The notes under the pieces: model-generated | What the model was told of the DNA's origin: nothing | The model's input: only the letters and a program-made list of their open reading frames with translations | The model's database searches: none | Made by a program: the position numbers and the translations under genes | Part shown: in pieces, positions 8,623 to 24,781 of the stretch | Layout of the letters: each line of letters starts with the position of its first letter | Position numbering within the stretch: position 1 is the first letter of the stretch | Source of the DNA: Candidatus Latescibacterota bacterium | GTDB lineage: Bacteria; Latescibacterota; UBA2968; UBA8231 | Direction of reading: 5' to 3' | Assembly (NCBI GenBank): GCA_965261395.1 | Contig: OZ253462.1 | Location: 5,248,001 to 5,312,000 of the forward strand | DNA length: 64,000 nucleotides

Positions 8623-8628
8623 TTGGCT

Positions 8629-8657: not shown

Positions 8658-8667
8658 GGGCACGCTG

Positions 8668-8700: not shown

Positions 8701-8792
8701 GCGGCGATCATGGCACGGAAGTCCTCGTACACGGCCGAACCCTAACGCTGGTGAAAGGCCGTGCGCCGTTCTAAGAGCAGTTTAGCCAGCAC

Positions 8793-8960
8793 TTATCTCT
8801 CTTGCGAAGTCTGTTTTCCGCGGAGTACTCTGGCCCGATACTTCTCGTCCAACTCCTGATAATGGCGGACGAGTCTCCCCGGATCGTTCCCAACTTCTTC
8901 GGATATCTTCCGGCGGATAGCTCGAACTCGATCTATCACATCTTTAGAGTGCTCAGACAT
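8793..8960 (-). CDS. Small hypothetical protein of the kind usually found directly downstream of PIN-toxin genes
   Basis: MSEHSKDVIDRVRAIRRKISEEVGNDP; GGAGG RBS; its start overlaps the stop of a PIN-like C-terminal remnant. Confidence 0.55.
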   Translation of the reverse strand: MSEHSKDVIDRVRAIRRKISEEVGNDPGRLVRHYQELDEKYRARVLRGKQTSQER

Positions 8961-9000
8961 CATCCTCACCTCCAAGGAGTTCCAAGGGCGTCACAAGATA
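8953..9000 (-). pseudogene. 3' remnant of a PIN-domain gene
   Basis: Reads YLVTPLELLGGEDDV*, resembling the xVTPxEL C-terminus of PIN proteins; no intact upstream PIN sequence. Confidence 0.4.
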
Positions 9001-9261
9001 CACTCTTCCGCTCACTGTAATCTTCCTTCATGAAGTGGGTTGACATGAAGCCGTCTCTGAACCTCCGGCGGCCTTCGCTTGTAGCTCACCCGGAATTTTA
9101 AGACGGCTTCTAACCAAGCCCGGCAAGGCCATGTTCATGGCGTGGTCGATGCCTAGGCAGTTCGCGCTGTTCGACGATTTCGCCGAACAGCCCCTACCGC
9201 TCCCAGCAAGTCTTTCCTGTGGCCCAACGCCACAACAAAGGGGTCGGATGACAAAGCACTG

Positions 9262-9936
9262 CTAGTCCCTCAGTAGGATGTTCTGCTCCTTCAGGCTCTG
9301 GATTAGTTGGCTAAATTTAGGCACCAATCGGATCACGATACGTCGGTTAGGGGACTGTTCATCCTTTGTTCCGGTTAGAACAACCAGCTCTCGCTCGCCT
9401 AAGCCAACCGGGACGATATCAAAATTTTCCCAAGTGAAGCCGACCTGCTCCCAATAGTCCACTATAGTTTGAGATCGTTTCAGGGATAGACTGCGGTTGT
9501 ATTCCTTCTCGCCGTAACTGTCGGTGTGACCCTCTACCACAATACTGAACAATTTACTGTCTTTTTTTTCTATAAACTGCTTTAATTTTTGACCTATTCG
9601 CCTGAGCCGATTTTGCCCTTCGACGGGAATATCATCCAGATCGGATTCATTAAAAGAGAACAAGATATCACTACGCATCACAATAGTACCCTCTTCCACG
9701 ACGACGTCTTCCCCCCCCATAAATTCCTCTAACTCATCGAGATCTTTCTCTATCTTACCCACCAACTCTTCTAGCGTCCGCAGACGGCTCAGATCCACAT
9801 AATTTTTGATCACCATCACGACGAGAAAAAAAGTGACGCAAATGAAAATAGCCGTGATTGCGTCCGTGAAAGAAGGCCAGAAATTGAGCCCACTATGGCT
9901 ACTGTGATTCCTTTTCATCCAGGGCTGCTTTCCCAA
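9262..9936 (-). CDS. ZorB/MotB-like membrane protein with an OmpA-like peptidoglycan-binding domain
   Basis: FWPSFTD transmembrane helix with the conserved Asp; EGHTD, NRSLSLKRS and NRRIVI OmpA_C motifs. Confidence 0.85.
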   Translation of the reverse strand: MGKQPWMKRNHSSHSGLNFWPSFTDAITAIFICVTFFLVVMVIKNYVDLSRLRTLEELVGKIEKDLDELEEFMGGEDVVVEEGTIVMRSDILFSFNESDLDDIPVEGQNRLRRIGQKLKQFIEKKDSKLFSIVVEGHTDSYGEKEYNRSLSLKRSQTIVDYWEQVGFTWENFDIVPVGLGERELVVLTGTKDEQSPNRRIVIRLVPKFSQLIQSLKEQNILLRD

Positions 9937-9957
9937 GCATTCAGCCGATGGGCCTGA

Positions 9958-11631
9958 CTATTCCTTGCTATTTTTCTTGAATAATCGACGAATCCAACCC
10001 CAATTTCTTCGCGGTCGTACGGTTACAACTTGCGGCGATTTCGCCATGCCGTCCAACTGTTTTTCTATAGCCTGCGCCGTCGCATGCATGTCTTCAAGCT
10101 GGGGGATTACCTGATCGATAGCTTTCAGTACTTGGAGATCCTCGTCCGTTTTTTTGAACCCTTGATTGATGGCTCCTACCATTTGATCTAGCTGGTTCTG
10201 CAACGCCCCTGTCGCTTTGCTCAATCCCTGTAGATCTTGGCGAAGCCCTTCCAAGCCATCTTGTACAGGTTGGTTAGCCCGTTCAAACGCTTCGCCTTGT
10301 TCCTTACCCAATCTTTGCAGATCTTGGCGAAGCCCTTCCAAGCCATCTTGTACAGGTTGGTTAGCCCGTTCAAACGCTTCGCCTTGTTCCTTGAGGCCAT
10401 TACTGACAGCACTGAGCAGGTTCTGGATATTCGTGAAATGGGGACGATAATCTGTGTCATTCAATCCTCTTATCGTCTCTAGAGTCTCCGCTAGGCCGTT
10501 TCCTAGAATCTCTATTCGCTCCTCAAATAACTTGGATTGTTTGTCTATCCGCTCATCAAAGGCTTGAAACTGTCGGGCCATCAGTCGCTCGCTCTCCTTG
10601 AGCATAGTATCGACGCTGTTCTTGAGCGCATTCAGAGGCCAGCTTAGCCGCTCAAAGTTCTCGATGTGTCGAGAAAACTCTATAGCCGCTCTCATTATTT
10701 TTTCCGCCCCCGCAGCTACCGTATCCTTGTGCTGCTCAAAAATCTCCGCGCTCTTCAGACTGGCCTCGCTACTTTCCTTGAGCTTCGTGCCGCTCTCTTC
10801 TATAAGTAAGACCATGCGGGCGTTACTATTGACAATCTCCTTGAGTCTTTTGTCTAAGTATTCGGAAAGAGCAGTGAAATACTTATCGTATAGGTCGTTT
10901 ACTGTTCGAGTAAAGGCGTGACTCAAGCGCAACTGAGGAGGGATTACAGCAAACTTGGGAGCGATCTTCGCGTTGAAGCACTCTTCCATGTTTGCCAATA
11001 ATGTGTTCCTACTGTGGAGTAGTGGGCTGTACAGAGCATTGAGGATTAAGGTGGAAAAAAGTCCTATTATACTGGTAATGAACGCCAGCGGCATCCCGCT
11101 TACGGACTGTCCTAATCCTTCTAGGATGGTACTAAATACATCCTCTATTTTTACCTCTTGGCTCAACGTCGGTGAAATCTGCGCTCCTTGGATAATACCT
11201 GGGATAGGTATGACCACGATTATTAAACCAACGAATGTGCCCAGTAGGCCCAATAGAATGAGGCTGCTGGTAAGTGAGCGGAATGCTTCGTCGTACCGGG
11301 CGAGTTCGTGTTCGATAGAGCCGATAAGACCGTCTACATCTGGAGCTTTATTTTGCCGGTATAAGGCCCTAAAATGTTCGAGCCAACGGACGGCTAGAGG
11401 ATGCTGAGCTTTCTTAAAAACTTCGGGAGATTGCTCAGTCTCTTCCTCCATATTGAAATTAGGATTGCTTTTCTCCCATCTCTCCATAGCATGCAATCCG
11501 CTGCGATATCGCCGCGTTTCTCTGCATCCTTGGACAAATAGGACAAGTGCAACTAGACCGACCAAGATAATGAGAACGATAAAAACGTCCCGAATCTGAT
11601 CGCTGTTTTGGGCTAAAAAGTCTAAACTCAT
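9958..11631 (-). CDS. ZorA-like MotA/TolQ/ExbB channel protein with a long cytoplasmic coiled-coil tail
   Basis: Three transmembrane helices, including LGLLGTFVGL and GMPLAFITSIIGL, followed by ~350 aa of helical heptad-rich sequence; directly upstream of the MotB-like gene. Confidence 0.8.
   Translation of the reverse strand: MSLDFLAQNSDQIRDVFIVLIILVGLVALVLFVQGCRETRRYRSGLHAMERWEKSNPNFNMEEETEQSPEVFKKAQHPLAVRWLEHFRALYRQNKAPDVDGLIGSIEHELARYDEAFRSLTSSLILLGLLGTFVGLIIVVIPIPGIIQGAQISPTLSQEVKIEDVFSTILEGLGQSVSGMPLAFITSIIGLFSTLILNALYSPLLHSRNTLLANMEECFNAKIAPKFAVIPPQLRLSHAFTRTVNDLYDKYFTALSEYLDKRLKEIVNSNARMVLLIEESGTKLKESSEASLKSAEIFEQHKDTVAAGAEKIMRAAIEFSRHIENFERLSWPLNALKNSVDTMLKESERLMARQFQAFDERIDKQSKLFEERIEILGNGLAETLETIRGLNDTDYRPHFTNIQNLLSAVSNGLKEQGEAFERANQPVQDGLEGLRQDLQRLGKEQGEAFERANQPVQDGLEGLRQDLQGLSKATGALQNQLDQMVGAINQGFKKTDEDLQVLKAIDQVIPQLEDMHATAQAIEKQLDGMAKSPQVVTVRPRRNWGWIRRLFKKNSKE
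10232..10392. repeat. In-frame tandem duplication (87-bp period, 74 bp identical) in the ZorA-like tail
   Basis: 10232-10305 is identical to 10319-10392 and encodes KEQGEAFERANQPVQDGLEGLRQDLQ twice. Confidence 0.95.
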
Positions 11632-11688
11632 GGGAGAGGATTTCTCTGCTGTAGTTACAATTCAGTCACAGGACAGGCACCCTTTTAC

Positions 11689-12639
11689 TCATTTCGCTAG
11701 CAAAATCCCGGACTTAACAATTACCTCAGTTCCCCGACGTAATCCAGGTGTAACAAATCGAATCACTTGACCGCGGCCTACCTGAGAATCTTCTCGCTCA
11801 TCGGAAATTTGGTGATCTTCTGGCGAGTATTTGTCCCCTTGCTCTGGCCAAATCAACTCAAAGTCGCGTTCTTGGGCAAATCTTTCCAATTTTGCGGGTT
11901 TCTGTTCTAGCGATTTTTCTTTGCCATCCAACTGTTTGATTAAACCGATCAGTGCAGAATCCCACGGACTGCTACAACTGTCTATCTTAGCTTGGATCGT
12001 CGTCCATTGATCTTTGAGAGCCGATCCCTCCGATATAAAAGAGACAAAATCCAATTTATTCACTGCCTCTTTGATCTTTTTGATGTCCTCGTCAATGGTC
12101 TCGGCATACTGTATCGACGGCATACTCTTTTCAGGTTCTAGTGGCAGTTCGTCGAGCATTTCTCGGAAACGATCTCGGGTATTTGTAATCTTTGAGTATT
12201 TTTTCATCCATTCTTCGGCAGCATCCCGTACTTCTTCTTGGAATGATCTTAGTCTCTTTTCCACATCAACCTCTAGCTTTTGCAGCTCTTGAAACTTGGT
12301 GTTGATAGGGATAGACTGGTAGAGATCTGCGTAATCGTCGTAGGAGGCTTGTATATTGTCGTGGAACTTTGTCAGCTTTTTTCTGAAGTTACTCAAATCG
12401 TTCAAAAACATGCCAACTTTCTTCACAAAGCTCTCTTCCGCTCCATCGAAGCCCTTGGCTACATCGAGGATATCCGAGAAGACGAGGCTGCCGAGATCGC
12501 CCTTGTGTAGTTTCTCGCGGATATGTCTTGTCTTATCGACCATTTCTCGCAGACCTTGGAGTTCTTTCTCCCAGCAGGCAACCTCGCTGCCTAGCGCGTC
12601 AACCTTTTCTTGAAATTCTGCCATTGATACCTTACCCAT
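11689..12639 (-). CDS. Coiled-coil protein with a C-terminal GrpE-like (nucleotide exchange factor) domain
   Basis: C-terminus IWPEQGDKYSPEDHQ...GQVIRFVTPGLRRGTEVIVKSGILL resembles the GrpE head (GexFDPxxH...GxVxxVxxxGY); next to an Hsp70-like gene. Confidence 0.7.
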   Translation of the reverse strand: MGKVSMAEFQEKVDALGSEVACWEKELQGLREMVDKTRHIREKLHKGDLGSLVFSDILDVAKGFDGAEESFVKKVGMFLNDLSNFRKKLTKFHDNIQASYDDYADLYQSIPINTKFQELQKLEVDVEKRLRSFQEEVRDAAEEWMKKYSKITNTRDRFREMLDELPLEPEKSMPSIQYAETIDEDIKKIKEAVNKLDFVSFISEGSALKDQWTTIQAKIDSCSSPWDSALIGLIKQLDGKEKSLEQKPAKLERFAQERDFELIWPEQGDKYSPEDHQISDEREDSQVGRGQVIRFVTPGLRRGTEVIVKSGILLAK

Positions 12640-12722
12640 TTAATGTTTTGCTGATCTTTACTTTTAGTGTCTTACCTGAATCTATCTCATAAATGCCATT
12701 GATACCGTAGGGACCGATTTAT

Positions 12723-12834
12723 GAGATGCTTCGACTCGGCTGCGCGGAGTTTATCTTGAGCGAAGCCGAAAGGCTCAGCATGACAGGGGCTAGCTCGGTC
12801 CGTGCTTATCATGCTGAGCGTAGCGAAACTTCCT
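12723..12834. repeat. REP/MITE-like palindromic element between the Hsp70-like and GrpE-like genes
   Basis: GAGATGCTTCGACTC...GCTCAGCATGACA and its inverse TCATGCTGAGCGTAGCGAA, with a nested TTTATCTTGAGCGAAGCCGAA unit. Confidence 0.6.
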
Positions 12835-12864
12835 GTCAGGTGCATTGGCATTGCTACAAGGCAT

Positions 12865-15800
12865 TCAACTGTAGTTAAAGTTCTTGCATTCCAAGTATTC
12901 ACCATAGATTTCTTCAAAATCACTTCCATCCTTTTTCTGCCCTACCGCGAAATTGTAATAGAGCCGACCGAGATTGTTTTCATCGCCTCGAAGCTCGAGC
13001 TTGTACTGCCAATAAGCGATCTGCCGAAAAGCCCTGTCCTCTATGTCCTCTAGCGGTATGGGAATATCCGCTACTTTATGCCGATCTGCTCTCCGATTTT
13101 TGTAGTTCCAATCGAAGAATTCGTACAGTGAGATCTGAGAAAGTCGATCCTTAGAGAAAACCTTGCTCGTATAGGGATGTACCTCTCCCTTATTTAGGGA
13201 AATCCAACGATCGAAAATGGGCCTGAAGCCTCGCATTGGATTGTAGGAACCTATCGGATAATTTAGCTTGTGTATCCCGAAGACTTGAAATCTGAACTCT
13301 GGATCGCGTTGAGACATGCCGTAAATAGCCGCTCCCGAAGCTACGCTCGCCTTCAAGTCATTATTGGAGCCTGCCTCTGAAAGAGCAGGGTCAGAAAACT
13401 TTTTAGCCTGTATCTCCTCTGAGGCGACTTCTTGCACAATCGGCAACTTGGACGAATTGCCGGCCAAGATCAGATGATCCAGCCGCATTTCTGATATAAT
13501 CCCCCGATCATAAAGTTCCTTCTGCATCATAGCTAGTTTTTTGAAACCCTGTTTCAATTCTCGGCTGAACACCGAGCGAATAGCCTCGTACTTCATAGGG
13601 CTAAGTTCCTCCGGCAAGGCTTCGTCCTTGTCCTTGATGCTGCGCTTTAATCCCTCCGTGACTTGAAATACATCGCCCCCATCCGGGCTGACCAATTCAA
13701 TTTTGGGCCACTTTAGTTCCTCGTCACTGGCTAGCAGGTCCAGCAATCCCTTATCTCTTGTCTTTTGTAGTTCCTCGTAGCGTTTTTGGGAAAAACATTC
13801 GTCGAACAACTCATAGCTCTTGCTGTTTGTCTTGATCCTCTCAGCTAACTGATAGAGGTGCAGAAAGTTCCTTTTCACACTGGTATCTTGGGTGCGTAAG
13901 CCATCTCGCAGATCTTTTGCAAAGGGATAGCGACTGCGGTACTGTTCCGGGACGAGTTCCTCGTAGAAGTATTTAGCCAAGTGAAATGTCAGCAGGTTCC
14001 CTCCCAGCAGATTGTCGCCATCGGAACCGAGAATTTTCACTTGCACTTCATTATCATCGCTAGTGTAACGTACGATAGACATATCGGTCGTTCCCCCACC
14101 GCAGTCGAATACCCCAATGATCTGTTCATCTCCCGGATTATCCTCCCCGAGCTTCCACACATAATACACCGCAATAGCTTCAGGTTCACTAATAGCTAGA
14201 TCTCGGTCGAACTTAATGTCGTGATCCTGCAAAGCCTGTTCGACCGCGTTCTGCAGAGCCTGTTTTTGGCGATTGAATATCGCCGGATAAGTTAGTACGA
14301 CCTCGCTAGGTGAATACCCGGATTCTCCGATGAAGTGCTCTACCATAAACCGGAGATAAATAGCTACTTGGTCCACCGGAGTCAGGCTGATATGCCGCCT
14401 ATTTATAGAGGGATGTCCATTGATCAAGATACCTTCCGACATCCCGGTAGAAATATAGAAATTCTGATCGTCGGGTTGGCTGAGAGCGTATTTGAAACTC
14501 CAGCAGATACTGCTCATAAAGTTCCAGAACTCATTGACGTCATTATTGTTATTGAGCGAAAGGTCATTCATCTGCCGAAATGGCTGACGACCAAAGCGCA
14601 TGATGGCTTCCTCGTTCTCGGTTGCAACCAAGTGATGCTCATTCGGCTCCAGAGAGTGGGTCAGTTCCAAACGTTCCGTTTTATTATTTATTGCCAGAAG
14701 CTGAAAGACAGTCGGTATTTCGACGCGAGGTTCATCGCTCTCGAGGTCTGCCAAGTGAGGCATCTCTCCATCTTCAACATAATAAGCCAAGCAGGAATTG
14801 GTTGTCCCAAAATCGATGCCAATGGGATAATCTAACGGTTTGGGAGGAATAACCTCGACAGGGAGCGAAAACCTCTCTTCGAACGCCGGATCTTCCGCTT
14901 CTATATCCTCAGCCTCTCCCTTGACTATGATCTCGGGTTCAAAATGCTTTGATTCTGTTGTCTGCGGGATATCGATAGTCTTCACTTGCAACTGCAACTG
15001 GAGATTCAGCACACTCTCCTCATCAGCACCCGCCGCTGCACTCTGAGAGTCAAGGAGGGCCTTCCTTGGGGGGTCAACGACCTGTAGCCAAGGCGTATCG
15101 CTGGTCACGCTATTTATGCGTAGTGGTGCGCCCCGTAAGTGCGTAATGGTGGCACTCACCTCTTTCGGTCTTCGACTTCCGCTGATAAGTGCCGTATCAC
15201 CGGATAAACTCAGCGGATTGAAGTCCAGCTTGAGCACCGGCTGACGAGTGTACTTTAGATTGAGACGAAATTCGACGTCACCTATGTTCTGGATGGGAAA
15301 AACGAGATGTACAGGATGTCCTTCTTCAGACAGATCTTGATGTCGGGTGAGCTCTACCGAAAAGGCTTTGTATGGGGCCAAGCGGAAGGGATAGTTTACC
15401 TCGTTTTCCAGCACCGCCACTTGCTCTTCCTGGGACAGACGGGGACACTTTCCCAAGACCACTTCGCTTGTAGCGTGCAGGGCCAGATTGTGCCTCCAGG
15501 CTTTCTCATTCACCGGCCACAACTGTGCGCCGTCAGTGCCTTGGTCAAACTCCCGCCCCTGCTCGTCAGCCAGCCAGATTCGGGGAGCCTTTTGGACCCG
15601 ATAATGAAATGAAATCGGTGACACCGTGGAGTGCAGGATCAACCGCTCCCGTTGGCCGTGAGACTCGGCATGCAGCCGACGTATTTCTATTGCTTCCCCT
15701 AGATCCAAGGAGACGGGCCAATTCGCTTCCGAAACCCATGCTCCCCATTCTACTCCATCGAGACGTTCCAGTTTCACGGGTATTTTCCCGGTATTCTCGA

Positions 15801-15996
15801 ACCGCATGATGACTGGAAAGCCTTCGAAAAGCGTCAACGACTCAACGGGCTTGGGAGATACCTCTAGACGGGCGAGTTGAGTCCCGCAACTGCTGCAAAA
15901 GATGATTCGGCTTCCACAAGGCCACTGACAAACAGGACAAGCACCCATCGCCTTATCGACCCGCTCTTGACTCGCTTCCCTAGGCATTGGCACCAT
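12865..15996 (-). CDS. Divergent Hsp70-family ATPase with an N-terminal zinc ribbon and Ig-like region (not DnaK)
   Basis: IGIDFGTTNS, ISEPEAIA, VFDCGGGTTD, LGGN, LAGNSSKLP and VASGAA Hsp70 ATPase motifs starting at about aa 390; N-terminal CPVC...FCSSCG; no DnaK substrate-binding domain recognisable. Confidence 0.85.
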   Translation of the reverse strand: MVPMPREASQERVDKAMGACPVCQWPCGSRIIFCSSCGTQLARLEVSPKPVESLTLFEGFPVIMRFENTGKIPVKLERLDGVEWGAWVSEANWPVSLDLGEAIEIRRLHAESHGQRERLILHSTVSPISFHYRVQKAPRIWLADEQGREFDQGTDGAQLWPVNEKAWRHNLALHATSEVVLGKCPRLSQEEQVAVLENEVNYPFRLAPYKAFSVELTRHQDLSEEGHPVHLVFPIQNIGDVEFRLNLKYTRQPVLKLDFNPLSLSGDTALISGSRRPKEVSATITHLRGAPLRINSVTSDTPWLQVVDPPRKALLDSQSAAAGADEESVLNLQLQLQVKTIDIPQTTESKHFEPEIIVKGEAEDIEAEDPAFEERFSLPVEVIPPKPLDYPIGIDFGTTNSCLAYYVEDGEMPHLADLESDEPRVEIPTVFQLLAINNKTERLELTHSLEPNEHHLVATENEEAIMRFGRQPFRQMNDLSLNNNNDVNEFWNFMSSICWSFKYALSQPDDQNFYISTGMSEGILINGHPSINRRHISLTPVDQVAIYLRFMVEHFIGESGYSPSEVVLTYPAIFNRQKQALQNAVEQALQDHDIKFDRDLAISEPEAIAVYYVWKLGEDNPGDEQIIGVFDCGGGTTDMSIVRYTSDDNEVQVKILGSDGDNLLGGNLLTFHLAKYFYEELVPEQYRSRYPFAKDLRDGLRTQDTSVKRNFLHLYQLAERIKTNSKSYELFDECFSQKRYEELQKTRDKGLLDLLASDEELKWPKIELVSPDGGDVFQVTEGLKRSIKDKDEALPEELSPMKYEAIRSVFSRELKQGFKKLAMMQKELYDRGIISEMRLDHLILAGNSSKLPIVQEVASEEIQAKKFSDPALSEAGSNNDLKASVASGAAIYGMSQRDPEFRFQVFGIHKLNYPIGSYNPMRGFRPIFDRWISLNKGEVHPYTSKVFSKDRLSQISLYEFFDWNYKNRRADRHKVADIPIPLEDIEDRAFRQIAYWQYKLELRGDENNLGRLYYNFAVGQKKDGSDFEEIYGEYLECKNFNYS

Positions 15997-18030
15997 CCAT
16001 CACATATATATCGTCTTTGCAGTGAGGATCGCTATAGTCTAGGGGTTTGGCAAAACCATCTTTGTTCTGCAAGTGTTTGCCGATACGGTCGTCCAATTCG
16101 CTGTCGCTAATGCCCAAGCGCTGCTGCACATCCTTGAAATTCTCTTTGAAAGCCTTGATAAGCAAACTGTGGAACAAGTCATCCACATTCACACTCTGGC
16201 CGTCTATTACAACTCTTCTTTTGGGATATACCTCACTCACTAGATGGCTTTGGAGGGCCAAGTACTGCTCAAAAACGAGGCCATTGCCATCCGATTTCCA
16301 GTTATCCCAAATCTTTTGCACCGCTTGGCGCAGCCTATTTCGTTTCTCCCGGTCTCGGGCCAAACTCCGGCGTGCCACCTCGATATTGGGTCCGTAATCG
16401 TCCGTGTGCTTTAGGCCCTGTTCTTGGTAAGTTCGGTAGAATCCCCGTCTGTCAAAAGTCACTACCTCGAGTAAGATACCATCAATGAGCGGCTGTAGGG
16501 CATCCACTAGCATCCGCGCTTCTTGGTCGTCCCTAGGCGGTAGTATCTCCGGATATTTGATATAGTCTTTGGTCATGTACCGACGGAATACATTCTGCGG
16601 CACTCTAAGGTTGTTTTCGTATGCTCTGTGCAGCTTCCTCAAATTGTCGATAGCGAACAGAGGAAAGGCCATCCATTGACTGACAAATATCACCGAATCG
16701 GGGGCGTGATACTCCGCTTTGTATCCTCCCACGTTTTGGTCGACTAGCTCCTCCCACCTTTTTTCATTTGGGGGAAGTCCTATGGTTTTCCGAGTGTGGT
16801 TCGACATACCCTGCGGGGCAGGTTTCAACTCGGACATCCGCGCTTCGGCTAGCCGTGCTCGTTTCTGCATCTCCTCTTTCTCGTTATGTTTCTGATTTTG
16901 CAACTCTTGAACGGCGTTTCTATCGGCATAGAACTCCTTAAATAGGTCAAACGCGAACCGACTCAGTGAATCCTCTACCTCTTCCCAATCACGAGGGGCA
17001 TTGTTCTTATTCGCCGAGCGATTGAAAATAATGCGGGTACAATCTCGTATGGCATCGATCTCTGTCCCTTCGAGATTAGCGTACTCAGCAAACAGCGGCT
17101 TGGCTTCTTCCGAGCGGAAATACCTCCTCAAAATATCTTGCAAAATTTCCTTGAAACCGGCACCTGTCAGTCCTCTTTTTTCGAGCTCCTTCCTTATTGC
17201 CTCCTCATAGTTAAGTTCGGGCATGAGACTGAGGTTGCGTACACTAGGCATCCGCTTTCTATAAGAATTATGGAACCCCTCAAATCGGCTAGCCAGATCT
17301 TGGAGATGTTTTTGAAATTCCTCTACCTTGGCCAGCAAACCGCTGAATTCCACATGGAGTTCACCATCTGCACCCCGGACTTCGGTCTGTTGGCCGACAA
17401 AGCCGATCATATTGTCAAGCAAGCCCTTTTCCTGCACCCGTCCCCCGGAATTGGGATTGAGCAGACGCCCAGCCGCTTCCTTCTCATAGCGAGTGGTGAC
17501 CCATTCCTTGAGTTGCTTCTCGACAGCCTTCACCTGCTGCACCAGATTACGGGTGATAAGCTCGGCGTTCTGCTTAAGGGATTGCTTTTTGCGTCCTTTG
17601 TAATGGTTGATAGCAATGCGTTTAGTTGAGAAGGCAAAGGGCATCTCCTCCCTAGCCGCTTTTAGGCGAGCCTCGTATTTCTCGTAATCTTCGGTAAATT
17701 CGATTTCGAGCGGCGGTGCCTCTAGTGCTTCTATGTCCTGATTCTCCCTAGCCTGCAATTCCTCTTTGATGCGCTCCAGTTCGCGGACGGCGATCTTCAG
17801 CCACTCAACCATAAACTTGGGGCCGAAATTCAAGGGGTCGCACAATAATTCAAGACACTCATCCTCTACCCGCTTTTCGAGCTTGGGACGATCCAAGCCG
17901 ATATTTTCCAGGATCTGCGTCACACCATCGCCCTTTTTGGTGCCTTGCTGTAACAGTCTTTCCCCTACTCGTTCCTTCACCTCGCGGACTAATCTACCCA
18001 TATCCTGCCGCGTTTTTTCCACTAGGTGAT

Positions 18031-19215
18031 GGCTTTGGTGCATGAATTGGTGTTTTTTTCGGTTGATCGGTTGAATAAAAACAGGCTCCTCAGTAGATTG
18101 AGCACGACTTTCGCCAAAAAACCCATGCTTTCTCGTCCAAGGAACCTGTCATGGCCAACCTATCGTCTTGCCCCTCTTCCGTCAAGCCTGGTCGCTCGCC
18201 TCGCCGTCGCTCCAACGTCGTGTACCGGGTACGTAATTGGGCCGACTATGAGGCCGGGCTGCAACAGCGCGGTAGTCTGACGGTGTGGTTCACGCCCCAG
18301 GCCGTCGAAGCTTGGTATTATCAAGGGCCGCCTCAGCGGGGGGCGCAATATACCTTTTCGGAGGTCGCCATCCAAACGGCGTTGACGCTGCGTCTTTTGT
18401 ATCACTTGCCCCTACGCCAAACCGAGGGGTTTGTCGCTTCGGTGTTGGCCCTGATGGGCTTGGATCTGCGGGTGCCCGATCACACGACCCTGTCGCGCCG
18501 TCAGGCGGGTTTAGCCGTGGCGTGGCCGCCCCAGCGGGGAGACCAACCGATGCACTTGGTGGTGGATTCGACCGGGCTGAAAGTGTATGGCGAAGGCGAA
18601 TGGAAGGTGCGTCAGCACGGCTGGAGCAAGCGGCGCACGTGGCGCAAATTGCACCTCGGGGTTAATGAAGCCACCGGCGAGATCGTCGCGCAGACCTTGA
18701 CGACGAATAGCCACGATGATGCGGGGCAGGTGGAGCCGTTGCTGGCACAGATCGAGGCCCCCGTGGAGGCGTTGGGCGGCGATGGGGCCTATGACAAACG
18801 CAAGGTGTTCAAGGCGTTGGCCGCGCCCGAGCAGGGGGCACCTATTCATCCGATCATTCCGCCGCGCAAGGACGCCAAAATCGAGCAACATGGCAACACC
18901 AACGCCGAGCCGTTGCCCCGCGATGAGACGATTCGAGCCATCCGCAAACGGGGCCGTCGAGGTTGGAAACACGAGAGCGGCTATCATCGACGCTCGGTAG
19001 CCGAAACGCAGATAGGCCGCTACAAACAGATACTTGGTGACACCTTGCGCACCCGAACCCTAACCAACCAACAGACCGAAGCGCGGTTGGGCTGTGCCTT
19101 GCTCAACCGGATGCGGGCGTTGGCGAAACCTGAGTCCTATCCGCTAACCAAAAAAGCGTAAATCACACGCGAAAGAAGCCAACACGGCCCCGACCGGTTT
19201 TCATGCAACAAAGCC
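18031..19215 (+). mobile_element. IS5-family insertion sequence, IS903 group (1185 bp)
   Basis: Terminal inverted repeats GGCTTTGGTGCATGAA / TTCATGCAACAAAGCC; perfect 9-bp target duplication CTAGGTGAT at 18022-18030 and 19216-19224. Confidence 0.95.
18151..19161 (+). CDS. IS5-family (IS903 group) DDE transposase
   Basis: YRVRNW..Y..GL..RGSLTVWF, PDHTTLSRR, VDSTGLK, WRKLHLG, DGAYD and GYHRRSVAET motifs. Confidence 0.95.
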   Translation: MANLSSCPSSVKPGRSPRRRSNVVYRVRNWADYEAGLQQRGSLTVWFTPQAVEAWYYQGPPQRGAQYTFSEVAIQTALTLRLLYHLPLRQTEGFVASVLALMGLDLRVPDHTTLSRRQAGLAVAWPPQRGDQPMHLVVDSTGLKVYGEGEWKVRQHGWSKRRTWRKLHLGVNEATGEIVAQTLTTNSHDDAGQVEPLLAQIEAPVEALGGDGAYDKRKVFKALAAPEQGAPIHPIIPPRKDAKIEQHGNTNAEPLPRDETIRAIRKRGRRGWKHESGYHRRSVAETQIGRYKQILGDTLRTRTLTNQQTEARLGCALLNRMRALAKPESYPLTKKA

Positions 19216-20728
19216 CTAGGTGATCCAAATCCTTTTGATCCTCTACCGCCGATGCCGTGTGCAACTCGTTCTGCAACTCATTGAAAGCCGGTTCGATCAA
19301 CTCGTTGACGACCTCATCAATCAAGGTGAAATCCTTTCCCGGCTTGGCCAAGCAGCGTTGCAAAAAGAGTTTCTCAGTTAGGCCCATCCCCTCTAAGCGG
19401 GGTTTGACATCGGCATCATCATAGCCCTGAGGGATTCTGTTGTCCTTGGCCATGATAAGTTCTACCAGATACTGAGCGCAACGGTTAGCAGCCGCATTGG
19501 CCAGACGAGGCTGATTCAATTCAATCTGGGAGAGCCCGAAAGATGCATATCGGCATGGAAAATACTGGACATAGCTTCCGTTGTGGTAGCCTGTCACATC
19601 CTGTAGGTACTGCTCCATATTGGAACGTACGCTGCGCTTTTGAGCGGCAAATCTAGTCCGGTCGAAATCCAGCAGCAGAAACTCAGCAATCATCTGGAAC
19701 GTATCGGTAAATTCGGTGATGCGTTCGCCAGCCACATTCTCGTTGTCGAGCATATAGACCGTATCAAAAGGCGGTGCTGGCACCGGCCGAGGGCTACCAC
19801 CACCCCAATTAAATTCGTGGGTGGAGTATTCGCTTGTCTCCTTATCCTCGTCGGCGACAAACCGGGGCTGCATGAAGTATTCGAGTTCCTTGAGGGCGGC
19901 AAAGCCATTGGCATGGACGGCTTCTGTCCCGGCGGATCCCACTACATCGTCGAAAACCGTGGGCATGGCAAGAAAAGCCGTGCGCGTAGAAGTTGGGAAC
20001 AAAACTCGACACAGAAATCCGACATCGATAAAGCAGCCAGACCCCGTTCCACCGCCGAGAGACGATATAATAATGATATCGAAGGCCCTAGTATCTACCG
20101 TATAATCTGGGTAATCGCGGTTCATGTCCGCGAAGGCCTCTTGGGCAGTTACTTTTCTCCCCAATCTTTCGATGGCGTCGTGAATTTCCGTGTAATGGTG
20201 GAAGAAAGCCAATCGCCCGAAGGAACGGATCTGCCCAGCACCTTGCATGATGGCATTAGCAGGCAGCGCGTCCAGTTCGCTGGGAAACCAGTCCCATATA
20301 TGCGGATAGGCATTCTTGTTGAGCCGGTATCCAGCCAACTCCTCGGGCTGGACCCGTCCATCAATTTTCTGTGGAGCGGTAAGGTCAATGCGCTTGTCCA
20401 ACTCGTCGGGCACCTCTCCGCTCAGGGACTGATTGCGGATATCAGTATCAAACCATAGGTACTCCATGATGGGTAAACCCGCTACTCTGTACTTCTCGTA
20501 GAACATCCGTCGCAGCCGCCGCAGTACTTCCTTTCCCGTACCTCCCAAGCCGATCAAAAGCGTGGGACGGATATCGATCGTTTGGCTTCCTTCTTTTGCT
20601 GTACCTATAGTAGTTATCTCAACCATGGTGTTCTCCTTCAATGTTGATCCAACTCAGTCATTAGATGCTTTTCAGGTCGAAGCCCCCGACGGCTGTCGTA
20701 CGAGGGCATTGGGACTCACTCGGAATTC

Positions 20729-21760
20729 TCAGCGGCGGCTTGGCCGGGTGACAAGTTTTGCTATCACCACAATGCAGAGGATCACCATCCCAAAGATGAG
20801 GATTCGCCATTCAATTTGCGAACTTGACTCCCAGCCCATCAAAAAATCAAAAAATCCGCTCAACCCCAAAGAGGCGATCAGCGCAATGCCTCCCCACAAC
20901 ACGAGGGCGGACCAACCAAAAGCTGTGGCCGGGTGCATGTCTCGGGTCTTGATGAGTCCGCTAAAAAGTAAGACCGAAAGGATATAGACGATTACAGAAA
21001 GTACCAAAATCCAGACTATGCGCCCAACCTCCACATAGCGAAAGGTGCCCTTCGATCTAGTCTCCGGCGGAGGTACCCCTACCTCGACAGGTTCATATTG
21101 GTCCGAGGAGATGCCCAGCAGCGGTTTAGCTTCATCAATTGAGACCGCAAAGTTGAGATTCTGCCCCTCGTCGTGGCTAGAGCTTAGATTAAAACTTACC
21201 ACGCCAATTACCTCTCCGTTCTGGTCGAATAAAGGCCCGCCGCTATTGCCCGGCGATACGGCGGCATCCGTCTGAATCAGTCTGAGGCCCTCCGGGGTAG
21301 TGCGAACCTCGGAGATAATCCCTTCGGTGACCGAGTATTCTAGCCCCAAGGGGTTGCCTATTGCCACCACGGGATCGCCCGAGCTCATATATTCTCCTGA
21401 CCCAAGCCTAGACGGCTGTAGGTGTTGGCCGCGCGGATCGACGTTTATCACCGCCAGGTCTTTGAGTTCGTCTTGGGCGACAACGCCCGTAATCGGCATC
21501 CAAGTTCCTTTGAAAGGCTTGGCCCATCCTTCTTTGATGCCCTTGATTACATGGTGCGCCGTGAGAATTTGGCCCGTTGACTTGATGATGATTCCGCTCC
21601 CCAGCCCTTCTCCCTCATTGGTAGAGACCTTGAGGAATACTACGCTTCCCTTCTCTTCCTTGGCAATCCGCTGAGTAAACGTGGAGCCGCTTTGTCCCGA
21701 CCCGCCACACCCCATCCAGCCGATAGCCAGTATGAATCCGAGCGTGATGTGCCGTTTCAT
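20729..21760 (-). CDS. Trypsin-like (S1C) serine protease with a lipoprotein-type signal and ~3 C-terminal transmembrane helices, no PDZ domain
   Basis: Catalytic triad motifs TAHHV, DLAV and GNSGGP; IQTDAA; N-terminal ...GWMGC; hydrophobic C-terminus. Confidence 0.88.
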   Translation of the reverse strand: MKRHITLGFILAIGWMGCGGSGQSGSTFTQRIAKEEKGSVVFLKVSTNEGEGLGSGIIIKSTGQILTAHHVIKGIKEGWAKPFKGTWMPITGVVAQDELKDLAVINVDPRGQHLQPSRLGSGEYMSSGDPVVAIGNPLGLEYSVTEGIISEVRTTPEGLRLIQTDAAVSPGNSGGPLFDQNGEVIGVVSFNLSSSHDEGQNLNFAVSIDEAKPLLGISSDQYEPVEVGVPPPETRSKGTFRYVEVGRIVWILVLSVIVYILSVLLFSGLIKTRDMHPATAFGWSALVLWGGIALIASLGLSGFFDFLMGWESSSQIEWRILIFGMVILCIVVIAKLVTRPSRR

Positions 21761-21775
21761 CTTGACTCCCTAGTG

Positions 21776-23404
21776 TTATTTGAGGCGTTCCAGTTCAAAT
21801 TCATTGCCCTTGTGTTTGAAAACCCATTTTTCATCCTTTTCAAAAGCCATCCCCTCCTCACCGACTGGATCGTCCATCCGATTTCTTAGTTCGGCCCTTT
21901 CGTCGCCCTCTTCGGCCGGCAGTAAGCGGTATTTGCATTTGAACAGGCCGTCTCGCCGCAAATATCCCAAAACGATATCCTTTCCGCTTTGGTTTGTGTA
22001 CTCCAATTCCTTTTGACCGCCGGGGCGCATCCAGTACTTGTACTCGACGTCTGCCAGCCGATAAACGAGCCTCCTGAAATAAACCATTCCCCCGGCAGCT
22101 ACCACAGCGATGGGTAGCAAGATCACCACGACCCAAGCCCGCCACAGATAGAGAGGGGAACGGACTTGCAACCTGCCTCTTATGGCTCCTCCCTTGGGCA
22201 CCACTTCCAAACCCTCTCGGTCTCGGTGCAGGAAGTGTATCAGATCGTCTGGCGTATAGATACGCTCGACCTCTTGGGGGTTGTCGGTAAAGTACTTCTC
22301 CTGATAAAGAGGAGTCATGCGAAACGAGCCAGGCGGTATTTCCAAGACAACCTTGGACATATATTGCATCGGAATCGGGCTGGTACGCGCCATGTCAAGC
22401 TGGTCGAAGAAGCCAACCTCGTTGGGCTGGAACGGGCCTAGGCGGATCCGGCACGAATAGCGGTATTTGTTCTGGGTATTGTGCTCCAGTTTCTCTTCAA
22501 GGCGGGGTGGAGTAACTCGTCCTCTCCCACTGGCTCGAATCCAGTACCGCCGGTCTTCGGGCTGCATGGGAACGATCCTAGGCTGACTCACCTTCAACCG
22601 CACCGGATTACCATGCTCATCTGTCGGCTCGATATTCAGGTAGCTCAATTGCGACTCTAGAGTAAAGGAGAAATCGACCGACTCGGATTCGTCCATGCCG
22701 ATATCACTTAGCTGGTCCGAAGGTGTCCTGCGTTTGCGATGTAGAACAATGCGGTGGTCTAGCGGTTTCATCAGCATCGGTTCCAAGCCGCCAGCCTTGA
22801 GTTGGGAGATGAGTTTGCCGAATCTAGCGCGCTGATCTTCTTCTGTGAGATAGGCATACAGGACCACCCCACGCGGACCTTGGTGGTACGCCTTGTCCGG
22901 GTGATTGAACAACCGCCCGTCAAAGGGCAGACTCAGCGGCACGGCATATAGTACTTGTACCACATCCTCCGCAAAACGCGCATAGAGCCCCCGAACATCC
23001 TCGTCATTGGTGGTCGCCTGCACATTATCGGTTAAGAAAAAAGTAATCGGCGCCCATCCAAGCCCTTCTTCAAAAGCCCTGAGCAAATTAGTATAGCTGC
23101 CCCAGCGTGCGTCTTGGGTCTCCTCGATCCACACTAGCGAATCCGGGTGTTGGGATACAAAAAATAAAGTGCCCGCCTCCAGTTGCTGGTCTTGGCAGGC
23201 TTTTTCCAACGAGGTCAGCAATTTCTGTAGCTCACCTGTCTGCTGGAAGCCCTCCATTGAACCAGAGCCATCGACCAATATGCTGACATCCATCCCAGCG
23301 GCGGCACGAGGGCCGCCAAGCCCTAGGCAGCACAGCAGAGCAGCGTACCAGAATGACCGGCTTTCAAACGGCCAATAGGTCATAGCGATACAGATGGTAC
23401 TCAT
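21776..23404 (-). CDS. vWA-domain single-pass membrane protein
   Basis: Signal peptide, MIDAS-like ILVDGSGSM ... T ... FLTD, C-terminal transmembrane helix (AWVVVILLPIAVVAAGG) and a short cytoplasmic tail. Confidence 0.7.
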   Translation of the reverse strand: MSTICIAMTYWPFESRSFWYAALLCCLGLGGPRAAAGMDVSILVDGSGSMEGFQQTGELQKLLTSLEKACQDQQLEAGTLFFVSQHPDSLVWIEETQDARWGSYTNLLRAFEEGLGWAPITFFLTDNVQATTNDEDVRGLYARFAEDVVQVLYAVPLSLPFDGRLFNHPDKAYHQGPRGVVLYAYLTEEDQRARFGKLISQLKAGGLEPMLMKPLDHRIVLHRKRRTPSDQLSDIGMDESESVDFSFTLESQLSYLNIEPTDEHGNPVRLKVSQPRIVPMQPEDRRYWIRASGRGRVTPPRLEEKLEHNTQNKYRYSCRIRLGPFQPNEVGFFDQLDMARTSPIPMQYMSKVVLEIPPGSFRMTPLYQEKYFTDNPQEVERIYTPDDLIHFLHRDREGLEVVPKGGAIRGRLQVRSPLYLWRAWVVVILLPIAVVAAGGMVYFRRLVYRLADVEYKYWMRPGGQKELEYTNQSGKDIVLGYLRRDGLFKCKYRLLPAEEGDERAELRNRMDDPVGEEGMAFEKDEKWVFKHKGNEFELERLK

Positions 23405-24653
23405 GATCGCGGGTCATCACGTACACGTATTTGCCGAAACCCGCTGGCGGCACAACCGGATCTTCGCCTAAAGGCCAGCCGCGCAAGAAAGGTTCCCCTC
23501 CTCGTTCATCAAGACGGGAAAGACGAAATTCCGTATTAGCTCCCACTCCTCTTTGGAAGTTGGCGACCAAGCCGCCCAAGCCTTTGGTCTGATCAATGTG
23601 CCTCATGGAATATCCGAGACTACACTCCAATTTGGACGTAACTTGCCGATTCAATGGATCGAACAATAGCATAAAATTAGACCCTATCGCCATATAGCAA
23701 TAGCCGGACTCGATCCGCAGTGCCTGTAGGGCCTGTACCTCTACCTCGGTTCGGCTCGGAATTTCTTTTAGCACCTGTTGGCCGACTAACTGTAGGGCAC
23801 ACAAGCCCCCTTCTTGAGTCAATAGCCATATTGACGGATCCTCGCCGCGCATCACGCCCGCCGAAGCGGCTAATGGACCGCCGCGGGCATCCTCATCCTC
23901 ATACGAGATTTTCTTGCCCTGTTCCAAATCCAAGAAAACAACCCTGTTTTCCTCTTCTATTAAGCCCAGATAGGTCTCGCTTCCCCGAATTGGGATCATT
24001 TCTTGGATAGGCAACGAATTTTTGTCTAGCTCTTGCTTTTGCAATTCGTCGAAAATGCGGTTTTCGCTCTTCCAGTATCGATCGCAACTTGCTTTATCTA
24101 CCTTATATACATGAATAGTCAACGCCTCTTGGTCCAGCAGGAAAAGCCGATTCCGGCCTAAGGCAATCTTCTCGACGCGCTCACATTCCACGGCAAGCGG
24201 CTTCCATGAAGCAGCTTTCAGCATATCGTCGTTCAACAACGAAGAGGTCGGAAACACCTGCAGCGTCCCCACCTCCGTGAGCGCGTAAATCCACCAGCGG
24301 TCAAAATCCACCTGACGCAAGGAAGTCGAATCCCCTTTGAGTGGAGGCAGGTCGTGTGGCTCGTTCTCTATGTAGGTACTCATTTCTCCGCTGGATTTAT
24401 CCACTAATAAAGGCTGGCCGAATACGTTAAAGAGGTCGTCGACTTGGTCCATAATGACCGGCAGATTCCTGACAGCACTGTCTTTACTCTCTCCGGAAGG
24501 TATGTCGGCCATGTAATCGACAGGTTTGCTCTCGACAGCACCGCCGCAAACGGCGCAAAAATTAGCGAGCGCATGATGCTCGCGGCCATCTTTAGAACAC
24601 GTCCAAGCGTTCTTATGCCAATTCCAGTCTTGCATCATTTCTCGCATCCTCAC
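23364..24653 (-). CDS. Hypothetical protein with an N-terminal zinc-ribbon-like motif and a probable beta-propeller
   Basis: C...FCAVCG at the N-terminus; repeated IYALTEVGTL / IWLLTQEGGL / VYVMTRD blade-like strands; first gene of the island operon. Confidence 0.6.
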   Translation of the reverse strand: MRMREMMQDWNWHKNAWTCSKDGREHHALANFCAVCGGAVESKPVDYMADIPSGESKDSAVRNLPVIMDQVDDLFNVFGQPLLVDKSSGEMSTYIENEPHDLPPLKGDSTSLRQVDFDRWWIYALTEVGTLQVFPTSSLLNDDMLKAASWKPLAVECERVEKIALGRNRLFLLDQEALTIHVYKVDKASCDRYWKSENRIFDELQKQELDKNSLPIQEMIPIRGSETYLGLIEEENRVVFLDLEQGKKISYEDEDARGGPLAASAGVMRGEDPSIWLLTQEGGLCALQLVGQQVLKEIPSRTEVEVQALQALRIESGYCYMAIGSNFMLLFDPLNRQVTSKLECSLGYSMRHIDQTKGLGGLVANFQRGVGANTEFRLSRLDERGGEPFLRGWPLGEDPVVPPAGFGKYVYVMTRDHEYHLYRYDLLAV

Positions 24654-24726
24654 CCTATCTCAATCCCGCGTACCGCTTCCGATCTCGGTTATAGACTTGT
24701 CCCCGTAGGGCGGTCGGCGGCACTCT

Positions 24727-24754
24727 AAAATAGAGGGCCACTTTGTAACGTCAA
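24727..24754 (-). promoter_or_regulatory. Candidate sigma70 promoter of the island operon
   Basis: TTGACG-N16-TATTTT about 75 bp upstream of the first island gene. Confidence 0.4.
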
Positions 24755-24781
24755 TGACAGAATACCGCCCCGCTCCAGCCC

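Follow-up and report, generated by a model that had tools for sequence, protein, structure and literature searches.

In Zorya anti-phage systems an envelope motor is formed by ZorA, with three transmembrane (TM) helices and a long tail, and by ZorB, with an essential Asp in its TM helix and a characteristic spacing of peptidoglycan-binding residues (PMC11946911), and the recruitment of nucleases in Zorya is the sole role so far characterised for a ZorAB-type motor. A different class of operons was described in 2010 by Makarova and Koonin, who found the tubulin relative FtsZl1 encoded with vWA genes, OmpA-family genes and the unnamed families B1-B9, and proposed that these operons act in membrane remodelling (PMC2875224). 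More recently, Kaur, Burroughs, Iyer and Aravind (2020) recognised tubulin with vWA, and HSP70 with GrpE, as themes of the DO-GTPase/GAP1-N2 conflict systems (PMC7159879). Here we analyse an operon from an uncultured metagenome-assembled genome (MAG) of 6.5 Mb from the Latescibacterota, which lies in a 64,000-nt stretch of DNA (the window; all coordinates are window positions unless a locus code of the form L0xx is given) and in which a ZorAB-like motor pair is encoded together with a tubulin-like GTPase, an Hsp70-like and a GrpE-like protein. The operon fits best in the FtsZl1/Tubulin_2 class, as a variant equipped with a ZorAB-like motor, and it almost certainly represents a real, horizontally mobile, envelope-spanning multi-gene system. 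By joining the two, it offers a concrete system for asking what a tubulin other than FtsZ does, and what else a ZorA tail signals to.

Between 9262 and 24653 the window contains nine open reading frames (ORFs) on the minus strand and one on the plus strand (Table 1). The former make up eight co-oriented genes, transcribed in the order g1, g2, g3, the tubulin-like gene (g4 and g5), g6, g7, g8 and g9, with a 41-nt overlap between g1 and g2, a 17-nt overlap between the C-terminal part of the tubulin-like gene and g6, and gaps of 15-225 nt elsewhere. A preliminary description of this DNA had reported eight co-oriented, mostly abutting or overlapping genes in an AT-rich segment. Coordinates, strand and order hold, except that the tubulin gene consists of two ORFs split by an IS5-family insertion sequence (IS), and the GC content is indeed 0.455-0.567 over 9-25 kb against 0.59-0.64 in the flanks (about 0.51 for the island against about 0.62). 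Within the island it is uneven, at 0.455-0.474 in intervals spanning 10-15 kb versus 0.52-0.54 over 19-25 kb. The gene identities proposed at that stage were recovered for the propeller, the trypsin-type membrane protein, Tubulin_2, the Hsp70-like protein and the ZorA/ZorB-like pair, but the labels vWA and GrpE found no direct confirmation by profiles.

Table 1 Features of the operon and its island (window coordinates).
Feature	Position	Strand	Description
g1, zinc ribbon and WD40-like beta-propeller, 429 aa	23364..24653	-	about 8 blades (AlphaFold 2 (AF2) and Foldseek); CxxxxC...CxxC motif
g2, exported MIDAS-bearing (vWA-like) protein, 542 aa	21776..23404	-	hydrophobic leader, DGSGSM, one TM helix at 425-443, ~100-aa cytoplasmic tail
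g3, HtrA/DegP-like serine protease, 343 aa	20729..21760	-	lipoprotein-type signal, periplasmic, three C-terminal TM helices
tubulin-like gene, N-part (g4)	19225..20641	-	Tubulin_2/FtsZl1 GTPase domain; ORF extends to 19163 inside the IS
IS5-family element, 1,185 bp	18031..19215	+	transposase ORF 18151-19161; DDE_Tnp_1_5 7.3e-39, transpos_IS5_2 2.5e-93
tubulin-like gene, C-part (g5)	15980..18030	-	~680-aa helical domain; listed ORF 15980-18043 (687 aa) starts at an ATG in the IS end
g6, Hsp70-like, 1,043 aa	12865..15996	-	zinc ribbon, ~340-aa beta-rich region, Hsp70/actin-fold nucleotide-binding domain (NBD), ~140-aa C-terminal domain
g7, coiled coil and GrpE-C-terminal-like beta domain, 316 aa	11689..12639	-	transitive GrpE similarity
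g8, ZorA-like, 557 aa	9958..11631	-	three TM helices of MotA/ExbB/TolQ type and ~355-aa coiled-coil tail
87-bp (29-aa) tandem repeat in g8 tail	10232..10392	-	1.9 copies, 100% identical (Tandem Repeats Finder)
g9, ZorB-like, 224 aa	9262..9936	-	one TM helix with Asp25, short helical linker, OmpA-type peptidoglycan-binding domain
accessory island	8625..24781	.	between the cobalamin riboswitch/TonB-receptor gene and the glycogen-debranching-enzyme gene; empty sites; GC drop
cobalamin riboswitch	8406-8624	-	110 bits; upstream of the TonB-dependent receptor gene

The motor pair is laid out as in Zorya I-III, g8 having three TM helices and a long coiled-coil tail and g9 an Asp in its TM helix, from which a short linker leads to the peptidoglycan-binding domain, and the best matches among the libraries searched are ZorA and ZorB models and the solved E. 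coli ZorB. The similarity is nevertheless remote, and the g8 tail measures about 355 aa, whereas that of E. coli ZorA spans residues 223-729 (PMC11946911). The partners differ as well, being tubulin-like, Hsp70-like, GrpE-like and MIDAS/vWA-like proteins (MIDAS, metal-ion-dependent adhesion site), a protease and a propeller; no PADLOC model for ZorC, D, E, F or G was matched at E≤0.01 by any of the ten ORFs, in line with the preliminary proposal that the Zorya effectors are replaced here.

With the 2010 operons the locus shares an extended Tubulin_2/FtsZl1 protein encoded beside a membrane protein, vWA-type there and putatively so here, and an OmpA-family protein, and many of the partners in those operons are, as here, uncharacterised membrane proteins (PMC2875224). 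Tubulin_2 and the OmpA-family protein are both present in the window, and the DGSGS MIDAS motif is invariant, the vWA fold around it being unconfirmed. The two differ in that the main text of the 2010 paper, searched for MotA/ExbB-type, Hsp70 and trypsin partners but not for GrpE, has no occurrence of any of these three, that it reads the OmpA proteins as outer-membrane barrels and not as stator subunits of MotB/ZorB type, and that its GTPase and kinase partners are absent here (PMC2875224). Many parts of similar kinds also appear in the 2020 conflict systems, in which tubulin is fused to a helical domain at its C-terminus, a membrane protein displays a vWA domain outside the cell, HSP70 (also in forms without the peptide-binding domain) occurs with GrpE, and zinc ribbons and trypsin-type peptidases are found (PMC7159879). 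There, however, the tubulin and HSP70/GrpE themes do not overlap and occur in Firmicutes and Actinobacteria only, while here they stand in one operon of diderm lineages, and the available text of that paper does not mention a MotA-type motor ('MotA', 0 occurrences).

The preliminary description had not recognised the combination as a named system. Parts of it are in print, as the FtsZl1-vWA-OmpA operons (PMC2875224) and as the tubulin-vWA and HSP70-GrpE themes (PMC7159879), but we found no description that links a ZorAB or MotA-type motor with Tubulin_2 operons or with Hsp70/GrpE, although the set may be listed in the supplementary material of PMC2875224 (Additional files 5 and 6) or in the source data that accompany PMC7159879. 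A study of ion-driven motors counts AglRS among generic ion transporters and leaves ZorAB out of its phylogeny, and its available text mentions neither tubulin nor Hsp70 (PMC12505986).

A conserved gene set in an accessory island

To determine how far the gene set is conserved, we searched the proteins of 41 related genomes and recovered full-length g6 orthologues in seven of 24 other genomes of the same genus and, in another family, in four of 12. Gene order is the same throughout the loci that were fetched, none of the genes being absent, at 62-99.6% identity within the genus and 25-58% in the other family. The same-genus loci share one chromosomal site, at which the system is patchily present; in five of five complete same-genus genomes checked that lack it, all of them with an empty site, the two flanking genes lie 296-673 bp apart, which sets the extent of the island at about 8625-24781. 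Across the phylum, a g6-type gene at E≤1e-30 was found in 16 of 168 genomes, representing four of 49 genera.

Metagenomes were then scanned with a diverse g6 alignment, and the 80 loci kept were scored with hidden Markov models (HMMs) built from our own alignments. This analysis revealed a g6-type gene at E≤1e-30 in 21 of the 80, among which 12 have Tubulin_2 directly upstream, six lie at a contig edge and three (L046, L047 and L052) have no tubulin within 8 kb upstream. ZorA- and/or ZorB-like genes are present in 11 of the 12 loci that extend at least 3.6 kb downstream, L042 being the exception, and the 11 motor-bearing loci represent nine lineages below 60% g6 identity, with GC contents of 0.28-0.50. 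The core shared across lineages consists of the MIDAS protein, Tubulin_2, and the Hsp70-like, GrpE-like, ZorA-like and ZorB-like proteins. In L049, L053 and L060, for example, the set opens with a zinc-ribbon protein (about 400-425 aa), followed by an exported MIDAS protein, a small protein with three TM helices (about 150 aa), Tubulin_2 (about 1,140-1,160 aa) and an Hsp70-like protein (845-872 aa); next come two or three proteins that match no family strongly, then a tailed motor protein and an OmpA-domain protein. The set is therefore found in the genus and in other Latescibacterota families, and its core in at least nine divergent metagenomic lineages, and it is a conserved unit rather than the chance mosaic that the preliminary description had allowed for.

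The survey also uncovered a subtype without the motor, in which one or two Tubulin_2 genes accompany a g6-type gene. L085, L092 and L102 are motor-free over 6-9 kb downstream. In L096 the downstream sequence is limited to about 3 kb, and L082 and L094 run to a contig edge. In addition, a Desulfarculaceae MAG carries MIDAS-like, membrane and tubulin genes only, and other Tubulin_2 genes, located on plasmids, stand among caspase, CHAT, OmpA and vWA genes.

Contigs from RNA libraries provided a further view of the locus. Four metatranscriptome runs, all of one study, hold 24-27% of the sampled words, and contigs of a close relative cover g2-g7, a coverage that is not proof of transcription, as carry-over of DNA is possible; the uncovered parts (e.g. 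10.6-11.7 kb and 22.9-24 kb) carry no information on absence.

The motor pair and its partners

The ZorB-like protein g9 matches the PADLOC ZorB1 model over its full length (residues 8-218, 5.6e-21) and Pfam OmpA at 1.1e-12, and it is the only protein in the whole genome to match the NCBIfam ZorB1 model, at 33-35 bits against a cut-off of 400. When a profile of seven orthologues was compared with the PDB, solved E. coli ZorB (8qyd_F, 1.3e-7) and 8vvn_B (2.8e-7) were retrieved over the TM helix and linker, and no MotB, ExbD or TolR chain was listed at E≤0.001. Residues D25, E145, N147, L150 and R154 are invariant in the family, with some 40-50 residues between the TM helix and the OmpA domain, and the spacing Y146-N147-x-x-L150-x-x-x-R154 equals that of the peptidoglycan-binding residues Tyr151, Asn152, Leu155 and Arg159 of ZorB (PMC11946911).

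In g8 the TM helices lie at about residues 15-33, 123-141 and 182-200, and the motifs LLGTFxGL and AFxTSxxGL are invariant across the family. The protein matches the PADLOC ZorA1, ZorA2 and ZorA3 models at 4.6e-10 to 2.7e-3, and NCBIfam antiphage_ZorA_2 (0.0029) is the sole motor model that it matches in that library. For Pfam MotA_ExbB it scores 19.5 bits, below the cut-off of 22.9, while positional orthologues reach 22.9, 27.6 (L053) and 36.5 bits (L049), and the L060 protein is recognised just by our own ZorA-like HMM. Taken together, the PADLOC, NCBIfam and PDB profile matches indicate a ZorAB-like motor, as first suggested, and not a flagellar or Tol/Exb-like one, and by its gene content the system is none of Zorya I-III. 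The tandem repeat in the tail is present in one copy in L011, L014 and L020, in two in the window, L012, L013 and L015, and in three in L016, so that within the genus the tails of different species differ in length by multiples of 29 residues.

Two variations at the distal end of the operon may be recorded here. In a second Latescibacterota family (L017 16393-17385, L018, L019 and L021) the ZorB-like protein is 304-376 aa long and has a second OmpA-like stretch. In two metagenomic lineages, the gene immediately after the ZorB-like one belongs to the staphylococcal nuclease family (L055 15630-16466; L060 16761-17432) and may encode an additional effector; in L067 this position is taken by a gene for an HflX-type GTPase.

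The tubulin-like gene was found to be interrupted. Its N-terminal ORF (19163-20641) matches Tubulin_2 (PF13809) at 9.1e-66 over residues 28-393, covering profile positions 1-355 of 356, carries the GGGTGSG signature and corresponds to positions 1-472 of the tubulin HMM built in this analysis, and its C-terminal part matches no Pfam family and gave no usable match in the ESM Atlas. Joined, the halves encode a protein of 1,155 aa, and in each of the other 15 full orthologous loci they are continuous, as a single ORF about 1,142-1,189 aa long. The element between them ends in 16-nt inverted repeats (18031-18046 and 19200-19215) and is bounded by a 9-bp target duplication, CTAGGTGAT, at 18022-18030 and 19216-19224. 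In three of the four metatranscriptome runs, contigs of a 95-99% identical relative join 18021 directly to 19216, skipping exactly 1,194 nt. The ORFs at 19163-20641 and 15980-18043 are thus a single tubulin gene cut by an IS5-family element, as a result of which the system is probably inactive in this genome (G000); intact alleles exist in related genomes, e.g. G022 (locus L016) and G018 (locus L013). The genome holds 20 identical full-length copies of the element, pointing to a recent burst of transposition, together with seven copies at 81% identity.

The Hsp70-like protein g6 keeps the nucleotide-binding motifs of Hsp70, and a GrpE-C-like domain is encoded directly downstream, an arrangement reminiscent of DnaK and GrpE. 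Pfam HSP70 is matched at 8.6e-14 over profile positions 115-239 only, and the NCBIfam models for DnaK and HscA are matched with E-values between 8e-16 and 5e-10, none of them near its cut-off. The motifs DFGTTNS, DCGGGTTD and GNSS are invariant in nine orthologues, with D395-G397-T399, D631-G633-G635-T637-D638 and G846-N847-S848 as the invariant phosphate- and adenosine-site residues. Unlike DnaK, g6 has about 390 extra N-terminal residues and shows no match to an Hsp70 substrate-binding domain, Pfam and NCBIfam alignments stopping near profile position 240-275 of about 600 and the C-terminal 140 aa being unmatched. A profile search of 1.84 billion representatives placed 54 clusters in the family at E≤1e-30 and 925 at E≤1e-10, mostly of 850-1,100 aa. 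Apparent breaks of g6 in G025 and G112 were rejected, each genome having a single open frame.

For g7, which lies under every GrpE threshold, the assignment rests on intermediates. The match to Pfam GrpE, at 2e-4 (21.5 bits, cut-off 25.8), is confined to the coiled coil, but residues 255-315 align by hhalign with the positional analogues L046:12636-13418 (E 3.6e-5) and L044:7392-8921 (E 7.5e-5), and these two exceed the same cut-off, at 30.8 and 26.7 bits. The PDB profile search of g7 gave no GrpE match, and the AF2 model (pLDDT 46) was too poor for a fold search. A prediction of the complex between the g6 NBD (385-905) and g7 (100-316) scored 0.14 against a mark of 0.32, was run without controls, and counts as evidence neither way. 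Distant loci have two g7-type genes, one of them with an N-terminal TM helix. Such a helix is also found on the GrpE-like protein of the second Latescibacterota family, while the window's genus is without it. In L046 (7018-14572; likewise in L047) a 1,226-aa g6-type gene stands with a GrpE-positive neighbour and without tubulin, which suggests that the Hsp70-like/GrpE-like pair is a module found in other contexts; the L046 pair adjoins an extracytoplasmic function (ECF) sigma factor, an anti-sigma protein with a TonB_C domain and a WG-repeat protein.

At the promoter-proximal end, g1 has no Pfam, NCBIfam or PADLOC match, and a PDB profile search returned zinc-ribbon noise only. An AF2 model built from 18 sequences is all-beta (pLDDT 87.4, pTM 0.90), and Foldseek matched it in the PDB to the Cdc4 WD40 domain, BamB and designed 8-blade propellers (E 1e-8 to 6e-10, TM-score up to 0.56), so that, judged from its model, g1 is a beta-propeller protein, predicted to be cytoplasmic. 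In g2, residues D45, G46, S47, S49 and M50, T105, and T125, D126 and N127 are invariant across 12 diverse family members, with a spacing that resembles that of a vWA MIDAS. Its orthologues have a signal peptide immediately ahead of the DGSGSM strand and a TM helix at about 420-500, which together place the ectodomain in the periplasm. ESM Atlas returned unnamed clusters at 0.93 and VWA_2 clusters at 0.83 only. The best PDB profile match of g1 is to chain C of 8s05 (E 0.34) and that of g2 to chain A of the same entry (E 0.68); both are insignificant, yet their falling on one entry may hint at a known zinc-ribbon/vWA protein pair.

The protease g3 matches Trypsin_2 at 3.9e-29 and degP_htrA at 4.8e-41, the latter under that model's full-length cut-off, and has the motifs TAHHV, DLAV and GNSGGP. 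In distant loci its position is occupied by a protein of 152-186 aa with a signal peptide and three TM helices only. The conserved part of g3 is therefore this signal peptide and 3-TM module, with the protease domain as a lineage-specific addition to it. The sensing and processing roles given to the vWA protein and the protease in the preliminary description are hypothetical.

Readings of the operon

The predicted topology spans the envelope, with the MIDAS/vWA-like ectodomain and, in this lineage, the HtrA-like protease in the periplasm, the ZorB-like protein bound to peptidoglycan, the ZorA-like coiled-coil tail projecting into the cytoplasm, and the propeller, the tubulin-like GTPase, the Hsp70-like ATPase and the GrpE-like protein located there. 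The reading that we favour, to which we give a probability of roughly 45%, is that of a conflict system triggered at the envelope, where tubulin assembly is under the control of the motor and is assisted by the Hsp70-like/GrpE-like pair; all of the mechanism beyond topology and homology is what we infer. The proton-driven 5:2 motor would stay idle, as in Zorya, until the envelope is locally disturbed, for instance when a phage enters or the cell wall is damaged, and ZorB can anchor to peptidoglycan as a result. The ZorA tail, by rotating or rearranging, could then signal to the cytoplasmic proteins and trigger GTP-dependent assembly of the tubulin-like protein at that site on the membrane, in place of nuclease recruitment, with the Hsp70-like ATPase and its GrpE-like exchange factor loading, remodelling or dismantling the polymer. 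The outcome might be a local barrier, sequestration or sealing of the membrane against the invader.

Several features of the system's evolution are of the kind expected of conflict. Among them are its presence in some genomes and clean absence from others, its low GC content and the company of caspase, CHAT, OmpA and vWA genes that other Tubulin_2 genes keep on plasmids. Alleles are mosaic: relative to G022, g1 through the tubulin gene are 96-99.6% identical while g6 and g7 are at 69% and 70%, and relative to G127 g7 is at 94% and g6 at 77%. Identity of g6 is at most 81% in eight comparisons, in which the flanks are at 81-97%. Copies are also damaged in four of 16 full Latescibacterota-type loci, by the IS in the window copy, a frameshift in the ZorA-like gene of L028, truncation of the ZorB-like gene in L024, and insertion of an IS in triplicate in L042. 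In the last of these, the IS copies, with rve-type integrase, occupy the distal half of the operon (13573-19089), with two GrpE-like copies between them, and ZorAB-like genes are not detectable. The tail repeat, too, varies from one to three copies between species; in E. coli Zorya every truncation of the ZorA tail abolishes defence (PMC11946911).

A number of observations weigh against this reading. The defence function suggested from the outset is hypothetical, and the flanks of the 11 loci, scanned with Pfam only, hold mostly housekeeping genes (topoisomerase, ABC transporters, tRNA synthetase), with scattered integrase, TnpB-like, AlbA_2/HATPase_c_4 and PARG genes and SNase after ZorB in two. 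Pfam, PADLOC and NCBIfam scans recognised no toxin or nuclease effector among the operon proteins, tblastn gave no match to g6 on plasmids, and in the 80 viral contigs kept, DnaK-like NBD matches were all that was seen of the system's families. L085, L092 and L102 combine Tubulin_2 and an Hsp70-like gene without ZorAB, so that the motor is no obligatory part. The relation of g8 to ZorA is remote: many of the PADLOC ZorA matches fall in the coiled coil, where composition can mislead, and the PDB profile search of g8 returned coiled-coil proteins only, without the solved ZorA. Two further assignments are indirect, namely GrpE-like for g7 and vWA-like for g2, the fold of which stays unconfirmed by Pfam, PDB-profile searches and hhalign; an hhalign comparison with a Nostoc plasmid vWA protein aligned the MIDAS strand alone, at a probability of 0.7%. 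Finally, an error of assembly may account for the frameshift in L028.

If the conflict reading is true, regulated cytoskeletal assembly at an envelope breach would be a new immune effector principle. We would only tentatively extend it to a widespread ZorAB-coupled class, in which an ion-driven rotary motor that senses envelope breaches controls a local tubulin polymer, dedicated Hsp70-like and GrpE-like proteins taking part, the defence or repair effector being cytoskeletal rather than a nuclease and the hypervariable modules and the tail of variable repeat number being under arms-race selection.

The rival that survives best, although we think it rather unlikely, is a non-immune machine for membrane remodelling or envelope maintenance, a small divisome-like module that constricts, vesiculates or repairs the envelope under certain conditions of growth or stress; were it correct, the operon would be a portable divisome-like module. 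In the division machinery a tubulin-fold GTPase works with an actin/Hsp70-fold ATPase (FtsZ-FtsA) and a 5:2 proton motor with an OmpA-type peptidoglycan binder (TolQR-Pal). The component folds of the operon would parallel this arrangement, but they share no known sequence relation with it beyond superfamilies, and the system here is accessory and patchy (16 of 168 genomes, with clean empty sites). Membrane remodelling is also the reading that PMC2875224 gave to operons with FtsZl1, vWA and OmpA. It would accommodate the lack of effector-type enzymes and defence neighbours in our scans of the operon and Pfam scan of the flanks, the fixed chromosomal site of the island in the genus, and the RNA-library contigs over g2-g7, which are compatible with expression without known infection, allowing again for DNA carry-over. 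It accounts less readily for a GC content below that of the host genome, for the mosaic alleles and the hypervariable Hsp70-like, GrpE-like and tail modules, for the repeated disruption of copies, and for the fact that the sole characterised relatives of the motor, as presented in the available text of PMC11946911, function in phage defence.

An abortive-infection suicide system of the NTP-dependent conflict type, in which tubulin/Hsp70 assemblies set a threshold and death comes through uncontrolled proton flux in the ZorAB-like motor or HtrA-like proteolysis, seems improbable. Its models in PMC7159879 do combine tubulin with a helical domain and a membrane vWA protein, have HSP70 and GrpE modules and include proteolytic activation steps; in this lineage a protease is fused to the conserved 3-TM protein, and the frequency with which copies are inactivated suggests that the system is costly to the cell. 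The operon, however, lacks the DO-GTPase that defines those systems, with no Walker A motif ([AG]xxxxGK[ST]) in the nine operon ORFs or the transposase and no GTPase family other than tubulin in Pfam or NCBIfam, and Pfam, which presumably includes such models, gave no match to a GAP1-type family. Most of the distant versions of the system lack the protease domain, and for E. coli Zorya the membrane depolarisation model has been refuted (PMC11946911).

We regard as more doubtful still a motor-driven surface machine for gliding, secretion or adhesion, like AglRQS-Glt or GldLM, in which the 5:2 motor moves a cytoskeletal track. Non-flagellar 5:2 motors do power gliding, e.g. AglRS, and the exported MIDAS/vWA-like protein could be an adhesin, but Pfam and NCBIfam recognised no outer-membrane or secretion components in the operon, the ZorB-like protein is closest to ZorB, and the distribution is accessory, patchy and decaying. 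Chance juxtaposition of unrelated genes in a horizontally acquired island, to which the heterogeneous GC content and mosaic alleles might point, is effectively refuted by a gene order kept at 25-58% identity across families, a core found in at least nine divergent metagenomic lineages, and overlapping coding regions.

Island borders and neighbouring features

On the ZorB side, the island is bordered by the riboswitch and by genes for a TonB-dependent receptor (6111-8375), a cobalamin adenosyltransferase (4045-4611), a periplasmic binding protein (2848-4008) and an ABC ATPase (751-2070), which together look like a B12-uptake operon. An ORF at 8446-8745 on the plus strand was rejected as an island gene; it lies opposite the cobalamin riboswitch and is spurious. 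One same-genus genome (L020, 1172-1412) has part of the debranching-enzyme gene at this border where the TonB receptor gene would be expected, which hints at a rearrangement at the insertion site.

Scans of the locus for promoters and terminators gave the same counts as expected from shuffled sequence. Between g6 and g7, about 60 nt (12725-12786) are common to many RNA-library contigs with unrelated flanks. This segment shows a spike in depth with loose ends on both sides, folds into a hairpin (z -2.35) and has just 26-nt partial matches elsewhere in the genome, and may be an element like the repetitive extragenic palindromes (REP) that has spread across organisms.

Further along the window, a second patch of low GC content (0.49) at 40457-41538 encodes a PIN_12-domain protein (40936-41538) that overlaps a 160-aa ORF without a family; together they may act in defence or resemble a toxin-antitoxin pair. 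The gene at 31971-33566 encodes a protein in which AlbA_2 (Schlafen) and HATPase_c_4 are combined with a Fic-like C-terminal domain, and a similar AlbA_2/HATPase_c_4 protein flanks the system in L025. Between these lies a gene (35585-40237) for a 1,550-aa protein that combines a Peptidase_M28 domain with an FtsX-like permease domain.

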